Shown in pieces: positions 49,003 through 61,665 of a DNA stretch of 64,000 nt. The translations under genes and the position numbers were made by a program. Source of the DNA: a virus; the IMG/VR virus record IMGVR_UViG_3300044950_000375, positions 17,509 to 81,508 of that record, one strand, 5' to 3'. The notes beneath the pieces were generated by a model. It made no database searches. It was not told where the DNA came from and worked only from the letters and a program-made list of their open reading frames with translations. Each line of letters opens with the position of its first letter. Position 1 is the first letter of the stretch.

Positions 49003-50762
49003 TTCAAATACGCAATCTCACTGTTAAAAACTTCATGAGTGTGGGCGCAGCCACACAGGCCATTGACTTTGATCGCACGGACCTTACCTTGGTACTGGGA
49101 GAAAACTTGGATCTAGGTGGTGATGGATCACGCAACGGTACAGGCAAGACCACAATCATCAATGCATTGAGTTATGCCCTATACGGACAAGCACTTTCAA
49201 ACATCCGCAAAGACAATCTAGTAAACAAGACCAATGCCAAACACATGTTGGTCAGTTTAGACTTTCACATTAACGGCACAGACTACAAAATTGAGCGTGG
49301 ACGCAAACCAAACGTGCTCAAATTTTATGTGAACAACGAACACAAAGCCGCAGAGGACGAAGCACAAGGGGATTCAAGAGAAACACAAGATGCCATAGAA
49401 CGTATTATCGGCATGAGTCACGACATGTTCAAACATGTGCTGGCCTTAAACACCTACACCGAACCGTTCCTAAGTTTAAAAGCCAATGACCAACGCACCA
49501 TCATTGAGCAGTTGTTGGGCATTACCCTATTGAGTGAGCGTGCAGATCGCATCAAAGAACTCAACCGGCTGACCAAAGATGCTATCCAGGCAGAAGAGTT
49601 TAGAATCCGTGCTGTACAAGAAGCCAACAAGCGCATTGAAGAACAGATTGTCAGTTTAGAAAAACGCCGAACCATGTGGTTCAAAAAACAACAGGAAGAC
49701 TGTGCAGGATTTGAAACCGCCATTGGCGACCTTGAACACATTGACATTGATGCCGAAGTGCAGGCACACAGAAATTTAGAAGCGTTTCACATTAAGAAAA
49801 AAGCCATAGACGAGGCCAACCGATACATTCGACAGATTGCCGCAGATGATGTCAAGCAACAAAAACTGTTGGACAAGCTACGAACCGAAATTGCAGCCTT
49901 AGACGATCACAAGTGTCACTCATGTGGTCAGGACTTGCATGACAACAAACAGGACGAACTCAAGCAGGCCAAAGAAGAACTGCTTAAAGAAACTGCGTTG
50001 CAGATGTTGGCTAATGATACACAACGACAAGAACACCAAGATACACTGGCCAGTTTAGGAGAACTAGGTGTAGCGCCCACTGTGTTTTATGATACACTAG
50101 AAGATGCACTGAATCATCGCAACACTCTTAGCACCTTGCGCACTAGTTTGGATACACGAAAAACAGAATCTGATCCATACACAGAACAAATTGCAGACAT
50201 GCAAGGGCAAGCCTTACAAGTTGTAAGTTATGATCATTTGAATGAGCTCACTAGAGTGCAGGATCATCAGGACTTTTTGCTCAAACTGCTCACAAGCAAA
50301 GACTCATTTGTGCGCAAGAAGATTATCGAACAAAACTTGAGCTATCTCAATCAACGTCTAACACATTACTTGGATAGGATTGGACTGCCACATACAGTAA
50401 AGTTCATGAACGACTTGACAGTAAGCATCGAAGAACTGGGTCGTGAATTAGACTTTGACAACTTGAGTCGTGGCGAACGCAACAGATTGATTCTCTCCAT
50501 GTCATGGGCATTCCGTGACGTGTGGGAAAGTTTGTACTCGCCTATCAACTTGTTGTTCATTGACGAGATGATCGACAACGGCTTGGACACACAAGGTGTT
50601 GAGAATGCGCTGGGATTGCTGAAGAAGATGAGCCGCGAACGCCACAAGAGCATTTGGCTGGTGAGTCACAGAGATGAACTCACAAGCAGGGTAGAGAACA
50701 TTCTCAAAGTTGTCAAAGAAAACGGCTTTACTAGTTACAACACGGATGTAGAAATTGCGTAA
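48999..50762 (+). CDS. gp46: Recombination ATPase subunit (gp46, Rad50/SbcC-like)
   Basis: KNFMS, Walker A NGTGKT, CHSC zinc hook, LSRGE signature, Walker B LLFIDE, VSH. Confidence 0.92.
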   Translation: MIQIRNLTVKNFMSVGAATQAIDFDRTDLTLVLGENLDLGGDGSRNGTGKTTIINALSYALYGQALSNIRKDNLVNKTNAKHMLVSLDFHINGTDYKIERGRKPNVLKFYVNNEHKAAEDEAQGDSRETQDAIERIIGMSHDMFKHVLALNTYTEPFLSLKANDQRTIIEQLLGITLLSERADRIKELNRLTKDAIQAEEFRIRAVQEANKRIEEQIVSLEKRRTMWFKKQQEDCAGFETAIGDLEHIDIDAEVQAHRNLEAFHIKKKAIDEANRYIRQIAADDVKQQKLLDKLRTEIAALDDHKCHSCGQDLHDNKQDELKQAKEELLKETALQMLANDTQRQEHQDTLASLGELGVAPTVFYDTLEDALNHRNTLSTLRTSLDTRKTESDPYTEQIADMQGQALQVVSYDHLNELTRVQDHQDFLLKLLTSKDSFVRKKIIEQNLSYLNQRLTHYLDRIGLPHTVKFMNDLTVSIEELGRELDFDNLSRGERNRLILSMSWAFRDVWESLYSPINLLFIDEMIDNGLDTQGVENALGLLKKMSRERHKSIWLVSHRDELTSRVENILKVVKENGFTSYNTDVEIA

Positions 50763-51606
50763 GATCAAAGTATTACATCTTGAGCCCACTGACGTGTGCC
50801 AAGCTGCATGCCCGGCATGTGCTAGAGAAACTGACTCAAAGTTTCGCAAAGATCAAAAACATCATTTGACCATTGGGCACATACAACGACACTTTTCAGA
50901 CCGCAGAATCAAAAGCCTAGACAAAGTGTTCATGTGCGGCAACTATGGCGATCCAGCCGCAGGTGCGCATACTGGTGATATTTACAAATGGGTTCGACAG
51001 CTAAACCCCACAATCACACTTGGTATGAATACCAACGGTGCCATACAAAACACTTTCTGGTGGCATGAAATTGGACGCTTGTTCAATCAGCCCCGAGACT
51101 ATGTGGTATTCAGCATTGATGGGCTGGAAGATACCAATGGCGTGTATAGAAAAGGTGTGAGCTGGACCAAGCTCATGCAAAATGCACAAGCATTTATCGA
51201 AGCAGGTGGGTCAGCACACTGGGACATGTTGATCTATCAACACAACGAACATCAAGTGGATGAGTGCGAGCAGCTGGCTCGCGACATGGGTTTTAAGTGG
51301 TTCCGTGCCAAGGTCAGCAAACGACCATTGATCGGCAGACTGGAGTGGCCACGCAACTATCAAGCACACTCATTTGAAGGTGCTATAAAGTGTCATGCAC
51401 AGCAAGAAAAAAGTGCGTACATAGATGCTCGCGGCAATCTCAGCCCGTGTTGTTGGATAGGTGGCACACAAACAGATTTTGTTCGCACTGATTCTGTGGT
51501 GGACTTTTATCCAAAGAAACATGAGACTTGTGTTGCAACTTGCTCAACAGATCAATCACAAACGGCATTTTTAAATCAATGGCGCAAAGAAATTGAGTTA
51601 TGTTAG
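50755..51606 (+). CDS. Radical SAM protein with C-terminal twitch-like cysteines
   Basis: CQAACPAC, MCGNYGDP, NTNG and FSIDG motifs; C-terminal KC..YIDARGNLSPCC..CVATC. Confidence 0.85.
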   Translation: MRKIKVLHLEPTDVCQAACPACARETDSKFRKDQKHHLTIGHIQRHFSDRRIKSLDKVFMCGNYGDPAAGAHTGDIYKWVRQLNPTITLGMNTNGAIQNTFWWHEIGRLFNQPRDYVVFSIDGLEDTNGVYRKGVSWTKLMQNAQAFIEAGGSAHWDMLIYQHNEHQVDECEQLARDMGFKWFRAKVSKRPLIGRLEWPRNYQAHSFEGAIKCHAQQEKSAYIDARGNLSPCCWIGGTQTDFVRTDSVVDFYPKKHETCVATCSTDQSQTAFLNQWRKEIELC

Positions 51607-52610
51607 CAACTTGGCATTTTCACATTGAGATTTCCAGCAAGTGTACCTTGCGGTGTCCTCGGTGTGCCCGTCAAGAAGTACCCGATGGACTTGTGAACAC
51701 AGAACTAGATTTAGAATTTTTTAAACGTAACTTCACTCCTGAGTTTGTGAGAGCCAATGTAGAGAAGATTACATTCTGTGGTGATGATGGTGACCCTATC
51801 TATGCACATGATTTGATACCCGTAATTAGCTATCTTAAAAGTATAAAACCTGTTGAAATTGTCATTGTTACCAATGGATCACATAAAAAATTAACTTGGT
51901 GGACTCAATTGGGTACTTTGTTGGACTCAAAAGATAGTGTTCACTTTAGTATAGATGGATACGACAACGCCAGCAATAACTTGTATCGAGTAAACAGCGA
52001 TTATGACAGCATCATTGACGGTTTGCAAACATTACGTGGCATGAGTGATTGCCAAATTGTGTGGGCTGCCATTGCATTCAAGTTCAACGAACATCATATA
52101 GACACAATGAAAAAAGTTGCCCAACAACTTGGTGTGGACAGATTTCAATTGACCAAGAGCACAAAGTTTGGCAGTGTGTATCCATCGTATGGTGTTGACG
52201 ATCCACTTGAACCCAGCGTAAAATTTGTCAGCAGTTCACATCGCTTCGAACGTGAAGTTACCCCGCTAACAGAAGCAGGCGAATGGACTGCAATTCCACT
52301 CACAAACAACCGACTATTCAATCAAACTCAAAGTCGTAACGGTGTAACACCGTTATGCGAAATAGGCAACAAAGGATTGTACATTGATGCCCGCGGCAGG
52401 CTATTCCCTTGCTGTTGGGTGGCCAACAGATACAATCACAATTCAGACTGGCAACAACTAGCAAACAACTTTGATCTAAATACAAAAACACTAACAGACG
52501 TATTGTCAGATAACTTTTGGGCTAACGAGTTCCAAACTTTCAAATGGCAAGAATGTCAAACCAAATGCTCTAGTGCATTAGTTGACGAAAAATACGCCAC
52601 TTCTTGGTAA
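51600..52610 (+). CDS. Radical SAM protein with C-terminal twitch-like cysteines
   Basis: CTLRCPRC, FCGDDGDP, VTNG and FSIDG motifs; YIDARGRLFPCC..CQTKC; paralog of 50755..51606. Confidence 0.85.
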   Translation: MLATWHFHIEISSKCTLRCPRCARQEVPDGLVNTELDLEFFKRNFTPEFVRANVEKITFCGDDGDPIYAHDLIPVISYLKSIKPVEIVIVTNGSHKKLTWWTQLGTLLDSKDSVHFSIDGYDNASNNLYRVNSDYDSIIDGLQTLRGMSDCQIVWAAIAFKFNEHHIDTMKKVAQQLGVDRFQLTKSTKFGSVYPSYGVDDPLEPSVKFVSSSHRFEREVTPLTEAGEWTAIPLTNNRLFNQTQSRNGVTPLCEIGNKGLYIDARGRLFPCCWVANRYNHNSDWQQLANNFDLNTKTLTDVLSDNFWANEFQTFKWQECQTKCSSALVDEKYATSW

Positions 52611-52644: not shown

Positions 52645-53073
52645 ATGACATGGCTTTATCAAGATACCCCAATTGAGACACTGCCCGAAGAATGTGTAGG
52701 TTTTGTTTATCTAATCACAAATAATCTATCTGGACGCAAGTACATAGGCAAAAAATTAGCAAAGTTTAGCAAAACAACATACAAAATAGTCAAACAAAAG
52801 AACGGCACAAAGAAACGGAAGAAGATACGCTCAAAGATTGACTCAGATTGGAGAGAGTACTATGGGTCAAGCCCAGAATTAACCGCAGACGTAATCACTT
52901 TAGGCACCGAAAACTTTACCAGAGAAATACTTTACTATTGTAAATCAAAATCAGAATGTTCGTACATTGAAGCAAGAGAACAGTTCACAAGAAAAGTATT
53001 AGAATCAATAGATTATTACAACGGCCATATTCAAGTTCGTGTGCATGGCTCACACATCATAAACAAACTTTAA
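52645..53073 (+). CDS. Stand-alone GIY-YIG family endonuclease (~142 aa)
   Basis: GFVYLIT..KYIGKK (GIY-YIG), YYGSS, conserved E (YIEAREQ) and YYN; likely ATG at 52645 rather than the track start at 52582. Confidence 0.75.
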   Translation: MTWLYQDTPIETLPEECVGFVYLITNNLSGRKYIGKKLAKFSKTTYKIVKQKNGTKKRKKIRSKIDSDWREYYGSSPELTADVITLGTENFTREILYYCKSKSECSYIEAREQFTRKVLESIDYYNGHIQVRVHGSHIINKL

Positions 53074-53460
53074 TCACGACTCTGTGCTGAGTGTTTGACT
53101 CAGCCCCATTGAGGAACGGTGCAATACCCGGTCCAGACTTGGGCGTCAAAGGCAACTGTTAACTTAAGGCAGCAAATGGTTTGGGCTCTGTGAAAAAGCA
53201 ACCCATGCTCGTAGAATTTAGATCTATTCTGGATTACTAGGGTTCCGTTGATATGTGAAGCTAGAGTAGGGGGTACCGGTCAACCGCCTCCGCGTTGGAA
53301 ACAACAATCTCTTTAGAATAGATGACTGCGGTCACTCAGATGATGCATTCAATTCACCGTGCATACGGTGAATTATGACCACAGTATCTAGATGATACTA
53401 ATTCAAAGAAACAGTTAGTTGTTGAGCGATAGCGAAAACAACAGACTTGCGTAGCAAGTC
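53074..53460 (+). ncRNA. Candidate large structured non-coding RNA of unknown class
   Basis: 387 nt without an ORF of 60 aa or more in a gene-dense genome; at least seven hairpins or long-range helices identified by eye, including a GAAA tetraloop hairpin. Confidence 0.6.
53444..53460. terminator. Perfect hairpin GACTTGC-GTA-GCAAGTC between convergent transcription units
   Basis: 7-bp stem with a 3-nt loop abutting the stop codon at 53461; no clear U-tract. Confidence 0.35.
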
Positions 53461-54006
53461 TTAAAGTCTTCCATGCAATATCAAAGTAAGTCTTAAACAA
53501 TCTAATTTGTTTGGAGCATGACCAATATGGAATGCTTGACTATCAAATTCTATTAGTTTTCCTGGCTCTGGAAATTCTTGGTGAACGAGTTTTCCATCAA
53601 CTACAAAATCTGTAGTGCCTCCCCATGTGTTGTCCCATTCGGTATTCAAATACACCAAGTATGTTCGAAACGTTCCGTCAAGTGATAAGGTTGTATCAAG
53701 ATGTAGCTCTTGTTCTTGACCATATGTTTGGCCAGTTAGTGCATATCTCATGAGTTTGAAGTTGGGTCCAGCCAATTGATATATCTGTTCAAACAGTGTA
53801 TGCCATGGCTTGCGAACATTTTTTATATTGGGTTGATTCCCATACCATGAACTTTCGTCTGATTGCTGATAGGGAAGTAGCCCGTCAACAAGATAGTATC
53901 TCCAAAATTTATTTCTAAACATCCAATTTGCATTGCTTGTCAGTTCAGTATGCATTTGTTTTAGCGTAGCTGAATCTATAAATTGAGAATGTCGAGAAAA
54001 TATCAT
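53461..54006 (-). CDS. 2OG-Fe(II) oxygenase
   Basis: HLD (HxD), LVYLNTEWDNTWGGTTDF, distal H (FHIG) and R; likely ATG at 54006. Confidence 0.8.
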   Translation of the reverse strand: MIFSRHSQFIDSATLKQMHTELTSNANWMFRNKFWRYYLVDGLLPYQQSDESSWYGNQPNIKNVRKPWHTLFEQIYQLAGPNFKLMRYALTGQTYGQEQELHLDTTLSLDGTFRTYLVYLNTEWDNTWGGTTDFVVDGKLVHQEFPEPGKLIEFDSQAFHIGHAPNKLDCLRLTLILHGRL

Positions 54007-54341
54007 AGATTTTGATCCGGCCAATCTCTAAACAGGGCATGTTGAATTGTGCCTGAAACAAACTGATTGAATGACTTGTGTTTGTCTTCTAGTTCGCCTT
54101 TGAGTGGTGCTACTCGACGGAATGCTGAGTCCATTTGACCCATGTCCTTAAATTCCATGAGAATCATCCATTCGGGCATGTCTGCAATTGAACGAAATCC
54201 CATCTTGCAACGAGTGATTCTGTAGGATTCCATCTTGCCTTCAGAGATCAAATGATCAAAGAAACTTTTCATTCCGTTCACCCAGTCTAAGTCTGAAATG
54301 TCGCCTTCTTTGTCTGCCCAAATTGTATATAAGTCTGCCAT
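54003..54341 (-). CDS. Small dimeric alpha+beta barrel-like protein (DUF6614-like)
   Basis: YRITRCKMGF..PEWMILMEFKDMGQMDSAF pattern. Confidence 0.45.
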   Translation of the reverse strand: MADLYTIWADKEGDISDLDWVNGMKSFFDHLISEGKMESYRITRCKMGFRSIADMPEWMILMEFKDMGQMDSAFRRVAPLKGELEDKHKSFNQFVSGTIQHALFRDWPDQNL

Positions 54342-61337: not shown

Positions 61338-61340
61338 ATA
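61333..61340 (+). promoter_or_regulatory. T4-type late promoter TATAAATA
   Basis: Overlaps the portal stop codon, 5 nt before the ATG at 61346. Confidence 0.65.
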
Positions 61341-61345
61341 ACAAC

Positions 61346-61564
61346 ATGCTACTGACAGAAATCTACAATCAACAGCCTCAAGCCTATCAGGACCTGAGTC
61401 AAGACAATAGTCAATTGCAACTCAACGACTTGCGTAAAACTCGATTGACCTTGCGTCAGCTAAACAAACTGCGTAAGATGAACGACATTCGTTCTGTGGA
61501 ATTCAAAGACAAACTCAAACTGATACGCAAACAGTATCAACCCCCAGCTCAACCCTTAGCCTAA
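61346..61564 (+). CDS. Small head-associated protein (72 aa)
   Basis: Between portal and core genes; RKTRLTLRQLNKLRKM; MLLTE N-terminus. Confidence 0.65.
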   Translation: MLLTEIYNQQPQAYQDLSQDNSQLQLNDLRKTRLTLRQLNKLRKMNDIRSVEFKDKLKLIRKQYQPPAQPLA

Positions 61565-61665
61565 TCAGTCGGCGAGAAAAAACAGCCGTTTTGAGGGTTA
61601 AACACTATAGTTTTTGACTGTTATATTAAATAACAGCACACTTTACCTATAGGAGTTTACCCAAT

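Follow-up and report, generated by a model that had tools for sequence, protein, structure and literature searches.

Evidence for a structured RNA with twin 7-nt boxes behind the GIY-YIG nuclease gene of large freshwater phages

The window considered here is a stretch of 64,000 nt belonging to the 81.5-kb virus record IMGVR_UViG_3300044950_000375 of IMG/VR, and this report concerns the gap without open reading frames (ORFs) that follows its gene for a small GIY-YIG nuclease. We have hardly any doubt that the gap is a real RNA of a family with three forms. By sequence comparison the window RNA is the uncatalogued form 1 of this family, which occurs in T4-like freshwater phages of about 340 kb. 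On balance we favour the following statement as a whole: the gap is the gene of a structured RNA of about 380 nt, a pair of identical 7-nt words (the boxes) is its working part, and the nuclease is its neighbour. The first-pass annotation of the sequence had proposed a nuclease-RNA system, possibly an RNA-guided one.

The gap (53074-53460, 387 nt) ranks first in the window among the stretches without an ORF of at least 90 aa, as had been noted for the region directly after the stop codon; the second-longest such gap, at 61338-61665, has 328 nt. Its GC content is 0.50 at 53100-53299 against 0.35-0.39 in the flanks. The plus strand folds with -119.4 kcal/mol (z -3.22), and the minus strand gives z -2.58. 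Rfam returned no match on the window at the gathering score, nor at E up to 10 over 52900-53600, which agrees with the earlier remark that the region was not recognised as a known RNA family.

Relatives were collected by searching viral contigs with the 142-aa protein of the nuclease gene; 598 were confirmed and 80 loci kept for study. The gap RNA is matched by blastn in 32 of these 80 (at least 250 nt, 75-98% identity). A 24-nt pattern taken from the invariant core found at least 119 further stretches. Conservation covers about 53078-53400 and two 3' hairpins in more than 100 loci. The RNA gene is frequent in uncultured lake phages of about 340 kb (at least 119 loci); the relatives of the window phage with complete genomes measure 331-347 kb, two of them with terminal repeats.

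The covariation alignment comprises 69 form-1 sequences with all pairwise identities below 94%, and the structure placed on it was derived from RNAalifold and mutual information. Its 72 pairs are formed in 90.0% of the 4909 cells, compared with 81.5% in shuffles and 41-45% when the partners are slid by 1-3 columns. Both sides changed in 37 of the 72 pairs, and the covariation score is 0.260 against 0.111 in shuffled alignments, with none of 500 shuffles as high. It has at least 13 helices and one pseudoknot, on the plus strand. G-U pairs are frequent (e.g., in 24 and 26 of the 69 rows at two pairs) and fit this strand only. Since only the G-U pairs of one strand are kept in the covariation, selection acts at the RNA level, and the plus-strand RNA once read from the G-U pairs of a single sequence is borne out across the 69 rows.

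Contigs from four metatranscriptome studies are colinear with the window over 52900-53402, across the stop codon of the GIY-YIG gene. The end of the contig cover at 53472 carries no meaning, because the gene beyond differs between relatives.

A group I intron was considered and rejected, as Rfam yields no intron at E up to 10, the upstream gene has its own stop codon, and the downstream gene lies on the other strand.

A search of bacterial genomes with a 19-nt core pattern matched 15 contigs, of which only three carry the RNA; the rest are chance matches. These three are contigs of bacterial bins, two from one metagenome-assembled genome (MAG) of Haliscomenobacter and one small contig from a Flavobacteriales MAG. 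Judged by this pattern search, there is no sign of a cellular origin of the RNA gene. Each of the two Haliscomenobacter contigs (L217 and L221, 148 and 183 kb) bears a GIY-YIG gene and a full form-1 RNA; either they are phage contigs misbinned with the bacterium or they hint at the host.

The boxes belong to the 3' module of the RNA, which reads UGAC, about 6 nt, ACUC, the 7-nt word, a hairpin, UGAC, about 6 nt, AUCU and the same word again. Box 1 is thus preceded by ACUC and UGAC in parallel to box 2. The window agrees with this pattern, and its two words are identical. The exact repeat was found by regular expression in 166 of 200 loci, and most of the others are cut off by locus ends. A variable guide-like segment beside a conserved scaffold, as the first-pass annotation had imagined, has its counterpart here, since the twin words vary among phages. 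The real words number ten, and the two commonest changes occur in all four combinations. Among 90 distinct sequences position 1 of the two boxes is AA in 56 and GG in 34, and position 5 is GG in 48, AA in 40, CC in one and CA in one; there is one real exception (L100). The boxes are therefore direct repeats that covary by identity and not by complementarity.

On a tree of 96 form-1 RNAs, built with the box columns left out, each box changed at least 27 times. For position 1, among 11 independent pairs on well-supported branches that differ there in box 1, box 2 went the same way in 10.8 and the opposite way in 0 (p about 0.001); for position 5 all five independent pairs went the same way (p 0.06). 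Any recombination able to reshuffle positions 4 nt from each other would separate boxes at a distance of 52 nt far more often, so the identity is kept by selection. As the words drift between phages, yet are identical within one RNA, one sequence-specific reader presumably reads both. Two words covarying by identity are a seldom reported signal, and they offer a handle for experiments.

A partner of the boxes in cis was sought as well. The mutual information of 53338 and 53342 with the columns from -620 to +330 pointed to the other box only, and there is no column complementary to the boxes in this range. The readers that remain would be a nucleic acid of the host, unalignable phage DNA, the repeat DNA itself, or a reader that has escaped notice. 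That the boxes are read by an outside nucleic acid we propose tentatively, giving it somewhat less than even chances.

The repeat DNA itself leads to another explanation, in which the element acts at the DNA level: as direct repeats (slipped pairing, recombination or a replication signal) or as a landing pad for mobile nuclease genes. Pairing of one DNA repeat with the other needs identity rather than complementarity and would explain the discrimination between A and G. The junction of the GIY-YIG gene and the RNA often recombines, and in single loci a homing-endonuclease-like ORF (phrog_314) or a PDDEXK gene stands directly before the RNA. We nevertheless hold this explanation to be highly improbable. 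The one-strand G-U pairs in the covariation mean selection on RNA, and the RNA-library contigs have no joint between the boxes. The 52-nt unit was never deleted or triplicated in 168 loci: 163 have two boxes, the other five have a stray third copy, and arrays do not occur. Besides, a homing gene would be sporadic, and the GIY-YIG gene is present once in each of the four complete genomes and is common among cultured relatives.

One may also think of take-off and landing sites, such that ribosomes skip the 52 nt from one box to the other or these nucleotides are removed from the RNA. Two identical words at a distance of 52 nt, the first of them with a hairpin, recall T4 gene 60, whose 50-nt bypass travels with a homing endonuclease gene. 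The chances of this reading are negligible in our opinion. There is no plus-strand ORF over 53074-53460 and none that runs into box 1, the short frames are not conserved among relatives, and the upstream sequence shows covariation of the RNA type. The contigs of the four metatranscriptome studies read through both boxes, so a removal of the 52 nt is not seen; a joint from 53338 to 53390 is absent from the contigs of four RNA runs, which are contigs alone, with rare forms invisible in them.

Among the 80 GIY-YIG loci the full form-1 profile is found in 37. In another 27 the match is confined to the 3' half of the profile and begins at about position 190-200, some 250 nt after the stop codon (form 2). 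The profile has no match in the last 16: six of them lack enough flank, and the other ten, with at least 837 nt downstream, have an ORF-free region of about 450 nt (form 3). Form 3 resembles the other forms in the 3' module and the last two hairpins alone, and no two of the three forms have 5' domains related in sequence. In all forms the 3' module consists of a hairpin showing box 1, a strong hairpin, box 2, hairpin P13 and a terminal hairpin.

The Rfam family RF01718 makes up the initial 141 nt of form 2 (20 of 20 loci tested among the 27, 89-122 bits). The window has no match to the RF01718 model (threshold 37 bits), either at the gathering score or at E up to 10. With no match to the modelled part and homology to the part that is not modelled, the window RNA is an uncatalogued sister of form 2. 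RF01718, or Polynucleobacter-1, was presented in 2010 as a candidate motif, probably cis-regulatory, from Burkholderiales and from fresh water or estuary samples, according to the available part of the source (Weinberg et al. 2010, PMC2864571). Literature searches for these two names gave nothing of substance beyond the 2010 paper, and broader ones gave no mention of the window RNA. The likeness is considerable: the RNAs containing RF01718 occur in the same phage group, on the same strand and directly behind the same GIY-YIG gene, and they run on into the core block and the twin-box module of the window RNA. The difference is in the 5' domain of the window RNA (P1-P7), which has another sequence and fold. 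Furthermore, RF01718 is listed as probably cis-regulatory in that part of the source and covers those 141 nt only, whereas the RNA here is phage-borne and 3'-terminal. The orphan motif of 2010 is then just the first third of one form of a larger phage RNA.

The tie of the RNA to the nuclease gene requires a separate discussion. The annotation had pointed to a strong positional tie, and this is correct: the GIY-YIG gene lies upstream on the same strand in 108 of the 111 determinable loci among the 119 form-1 loci listed, within 400 nt in 88. The distance is below 80 nt in 82 loci, 80-400 nt in six and larger in 20; eight loci are too short to judge, and three have no GIY-YIG gene in the locus. 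One or two other, unrelated ORFs separate the gene from the RNA in 20 of the 119. The idea that a nuclease is always in front of the RNA was rejected on the three loci without an adjacent GIY-YIG gene. At L140 a PDDEXK nuclease gene (E 1.1e-24) takes its place, with 6 nt between its end and the RNA; the neighbour at L154 is sulfotransferase-like (merely an Atlas lead), and its 96-kb record has no GIY-YIG gene; at L143 a 164-aa ORF is in front and the GIY-YIG gene is further up in the record. Thus, the RNA is present without any GIY-YIG gene in two records.

Six of the inserted ORFs were compared with Pfam and PHROG; five of them (258-355 aa) have no match, and the sixth is the homing-endonuclease-like one (Table 1). 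In many loci a stop codon followed by GGCA (TAGGCA, TAAGGCA or ACAGGCA) is observed 10-25 nt before the first conserved base of the RNA. This motif does not depend on the gene in front (e.g., L085, L105, L155 and L195) and is absent from the window at 53040-53077; it could be a processing, promoter or recombination signal.

According to the nuclease-RNA explanation, the GIY-YIG protein binds the 3' module, and the boxes aim it or the RNA serves as its scaffold or inhibitor. The positional data above favour it, including the PDDEXK gene of L140, as do the RNA-library contigs that cross the GIY-YIG stop codon. The protein is a catalytic domain only, its basic stretch is 6 residues longer than in homologues of phages without the RNA, and short variable words do exist. 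Even so, we judge the explanation quite unlikely. On the GIY-YIG gene tree we count at least 16 changes of RNA form, i.e., the junction recombines often; the nearest gene relatives of the window (97% identical) carry form 3, and a GIY-YIG protein 96% identical to that of the window precedes form 3 with its unrelated 5' domain. The protein family is nearly universal among cultured phages of the cyanophage type and is present in 462 cultured phage records, mostly of cyanophages, at 38-50% identity. Beside three inspected homologues (Melnitz-3, P-HM2 and phiN3) nhmmer found no RNA within 2.5 kb downstream, where other genes follow, and cultured phage records gave no blastn match to the RNA. Coding positions of the GIY-YIG gene do not covary with the boxes, the best mutual information being 0.27-0.43 against 0.96-1.05 between the boxes. 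Finally, there are the ORFs in between, the record of L154, and the length of 7 nt, which is very short for a guide. The form switches, the phages that have the protein family and lack the RNA, the ORFs in between and the lack of covariation with the words all speak against the earlier idea that the RNA partners or guides the nuclease. A minimal nuclease beside a structured RNA is not in itself an RNA-guided nuclease. We presume that the nuclease is probably a conserved neighbour rather than a partner; most likely, the operon that the RNA ends has GIY-YIG as its last protein gene.

In 91 of 100 distinct loci the RNA is followed by a convergent gene; the RNA closes the rightward gene block, and there is one 3' module in each of four complete or near-complete genomes. 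This position suggests a cis-acting 3' element that has no role in trans and either protects or regulates the upstream mRNA or acts as an insulator or terminator between the convergent blocks. Consistent with this are the start of the RNA at the stop codon of the gene in front and the terminal hairpins, one of them terminator-like for the opposite strand. We regard such an element as unlikely, since at least 13 helices, a pseudoknot, a near-invariant block of 55 nt and twin boxes exceed the needs of a stabiliser or terminator. Moreover, there are three unrelated 5' domains, each with its own conserved structure, and the RNA is unchanged where the gene in front differs.

We return to the favoured statement, in which the boxes are the working part. 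The RNA would be made as the 3' end of the transcript carrying the GIY-YIG gene and would act in its own right as RNA. Its working part would be the pair of boxes, both read by one sequence-specific reader; the simplest would be a nucleic acid that is complementary to the boxes, is not part of the RNA and is present as two copies or two molecules. The 5' domains, which are exchangeable, would be a scaffold, and the GIY-YIG nuclease would be a conserved neighbour and one of the core-like genes of this phage group.

A number of points weigh against this proposal. As to transcription, contigs from RNA runs reveal nothing of strand, ends or level, and carried-over DNA may be among them. The linkage to GIY-YIG (108 of 111 listed loci) is tighter than to any other neighbour; together with the PDDEXK gene at L140 it leaves room for a functional tie to nucleases. 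As to the boxes, exchange of whole modules by recombination could keep part of their identity. In addition, an RNA partner with U tolerates a change from A to G, so plain RNA pairing alone does not explain the strict identity. Searches for the partner in genomes covered the alignable parts of six related phage genomes, with the unalignable parts and host genomes outside. No word or complement site tracks the boxes in G000 compared with G001 (16 kb aligned) and G003 (43 kb); the same is true of 61 such sites of the complete G004 compared with G005, G006 and G007 (134-157 kb aligned). The anticodon loops of phage tRNAs in four genomes reach at best 5 of 7 as a reader.

One could also propose a dual reading head, i.e., twin words that hold a target carrying the complement twice, on two molecules or on both strands of an inverted repeat, with the nuclease gene in front (GIY-YIG, or PDDEXK in one locus) supplying the effector; we consider this very unlikely. 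If it were true, the 5' domains and fast-changing words would be specificity alleles, e.g., between co-infecting giant phages or against a host element. RNA-directed systems would then include a new kind, with a GIY-YIG nuclease as its basis.

OMEGA systems combine IscB or TnpB with an omega RNA, and the HEARO RNA belongs here as well. They resemble our case in that a small nuclease gene stands beside a large structured RNA with a short variable segment. The nuclease here is GIY-YIG (SegE_GIY-YIG is the only Pfam match), not RuvC or HNH; two identical 7-nt words lie inside the RNA, in contrast to one terminal guide of 15-20 nt; and the RNA and gene recombine apart freely and are not inherited as one unit. 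With the homing endonucleases of the T4 Seg/I-TevI type the window protein shares a SegE-type GIY-YIG catalytic domain, and its size is close to that of T4 endonuclease II. Unlike the Seg type, it has no DNA-binding domain by Pfam (the catalytic domain takes residues 3-129 of 142), and it is not sporadic, being single-copy in four of four near-complete genomes and present in the 462 cultured records. The IS110 bridge RNA likewise reads two nucleic-acid sites with short internal segments, and the boxB elements of lambda nut are likewise identical protein-binding boxes in one phage that differ between relatives. In contrast to both, no recombinase or N-like partner is identified here, and the words are 52 nt apart in one RNA.

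Large many-helix orphan RNAs are rare, and several of the earlier ones proved to be ribozymes or ribonucleoprotein cores. GOLLD, ROOL, OLE and raiA are similar to the window RNA as large, many-helix, pseudoknotted orphans from comparative genomics, partly phage-borne, as far as the available parts of the sources describe them. The window RNA differs in having no sequence or model match to them in Rfam. We know of no two words covarying by identity in these four RNAs.

The coordinates of all features are given in Table 1.

Table 1. Features of the RNA and of the genes adjoining it (window coordinates unless a locus is named)
Feature	Coordinates	Strand	Evidence
Whole structured non-coding RNA, form 1 of the twin-box family	53078..53460	+	Conservation, covariation, RNA-library contigs
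P1 hairpin	53086..53104	+	6/7 pairs change on both sides; 74.6% of cells paired
P2 (53105-08/53140-43) around P3 (53113-19/53128-34)	53105..53143	+	Covariation
P4 hairpin with conserved 7-nt loop	53156..53172	+	RNAalifold columns 104-106/114-116 pair in 67-69 of 69 rows
P5 with inner stem	53182..53205	+	99.3% and 100% paired
P6 hairpin; loop 53222-53228 is the 5' strand of pseudoknot P7	53212..53239	+	99.6% paired; 3/10 pairs change on both sides
Near-invariant core block, partly common to form 2	53235..53291	+	Invariant columns in 33 and 69 sequences; nhmmer
Three-way junction of P8, P9 and P10	53263..53312	+	Covariation
P7, 3' strand of pseudoknot (partner 53222-53228)	53317..53323	+	93.6% paired; 5/7 pairs change on both sides; mutual information
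M1 hairpin (53323-29/53345-51), loop shows ACUC and box 1	53323..53351	+	Cognate test
Box 1, 7-nt word, AGAUGAU in the window	53338..53344	+	Equals box 2 in 89/96 aligned rows
P12 strong hairpin	53351..53374	+	8 inner pairs conserved; 3 helix pairs change on both sides
Box 2, same word, with invariant AUCU and upstream UGAC before it	53390..53396	+	Alignment, mutual information, regular expression
P13 hairpin: 6-bp stem, GA/GAA internal loop, 2 bp, GNRA-type tetraloop	53418..53442	+	116/127 distinct tails
P14 terminal hairpin, abuts the stop codon of the convergent gene	53444..53460	+	Covarying stems visible in alignment
GIY-YIG-only protein gene, 142 aa, SegE-type domain, PHROG 447	52645..53073	+	Pfam, PHROG; one copy per genome
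Inserted ORFs without Pfam or PHROG match	L085:4369-5256, L093:536-1600, L155:1846-2856, L175:3433-4440, L105:7780-8553
Sixth insert, homing-endonuclease-like	L166:908-1636		phrog_314, E 1.3e-15

Eight helices had been named from the single sequence; six of them stand, wholly or in part, and two do not. Both-side changes support GCTGAGT/ACTCAGC (P1) across the relatives; the low percentage of paired cells in P1 is due to an alignment shift in one subclass. In P2 and P3 the share of paired cells is 100% and 98.8%, with both-side changes in 3 of 4 and 5 of 6 pairs. The closing pair of P5 occurs in four types (UA 36, GC 22, CG 7, AU 2). The long-range helix is retained only as the P7 pseudoknot between the P6 loop and its partner 90 nt downstream, and the remainder of its proposed extent is dropped. 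GGGGG/CCTCC and the GNRA hairpin are upheld in the 69 relatives as P9 and P10. The closing pair of P8 (53263-66/53309-12) is AU in 35 and UA in 34; the outer pair of P9 (53269-74/53286-91 plus an inner 2 bp) is GC in 48 and AU in 21; one pair of P10 (53294-53305) occurs in four types. A further helix, GAGU/ACUC, was proposed by RNAalifold and rejected, since it clashes with P8, whose closing pair covaries perfectly, and its strands are invariant. Invariant strands allow no covariation test, so one pseudoknot is confirmed and not two.

In the 3' half, the proposed helix of CTGCGGTCA with TGACCACAG does not hold, because its cognate pairing is no better than the non-cognate one (66 of 300 permutations as good). 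Its upstream strand pairs instead with the stretch right after box 1, which gives M1; here the cognate stems reach -6.32 against -5.25 kcal/mol for non-cognate ones, and none of 300 permutations is as good. The perfect 10-bp hairpin is conserved in 8 of its 10 pairs (P12), and it is exchanged for other hairpins in forms 2 and 3. AGTATC/GATACT was also lost: one of its arms is box 2, in which A replaces the G in 34 of 69 rows and the C facing it never varies, and the pairing is peculiar to the window phage. GTTGTT/AACAAC (P13) is confirmed by at least nine different complementary stems. The P13 stem is a perfect 6 bp in 85 of 127 distinct tails, with 30 distinct stem pairs, and the order of its conserved loop is GA, 2 bp, GNRA-type tetraloop, 2 bp, GAA; P13 is more than a terminator. 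P14 scores as terminator-like on the minus strand.

Insertions are observed at several places. An extra 19-nt stem-loop lies between P3 and P2 in L092, L099, L106 and L128 (window 53135-53139), and L024 has an AT-rich, repeat-like insert of about 70 nt at P10. A 10-nt insert (CGCUUCGCUC) is found between box 2 and P13 in some loci (e.g., L008, L028 and L048) and not in the window. It is complementary to the conserved P13 loop and, judging from this complementarity, could form a further pseudoknot or an alternative fold.

The nuclease gene itself agrees with its earlier description as a minimal GIY-YIG without a C-terminal DNA-binding module. PF19835 (SegE_GIY-YIG) matches residues 3-129 with E 3.2e-32, over profile positions 1-123 of 123, and Pfam finds no second domain in the 142-aa protein. 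The match to phrog_447 spans the full protein length (E 3e-37); the name of this group, 'NAD synthetase', is a label inherited from annotations. The basic insert pointed out earlier is present; it is, however, a stretch within the family domain, 6 residues shorter in the Melnitz and phiN3 homologues. Comparison by sequence with solved structures gave no significant match. In four genomes of 95-100% completeness the gene is matched once each; together with the 462 cultured records, this is the pattern of a core gene and not of a sporadic mobile gene.

ARAGORN found 24-28 tRNA genes in the complete relatives, only five in G007, and a permuted tmRNA gene with a tag peptide in three of the four (G004, G005 and G007 are among the relatives); the window has no tRNA or tmRNA match. 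The gene that follows the RNA (53461-54024) is convergent and encodes a protein of the 2OG-Fe(II) oxygenase type. The GIY-YIG gene is preceded by Radical SAM/SPASM genes (50755-52610), whose number and identity (22-96%) vary among relatives.

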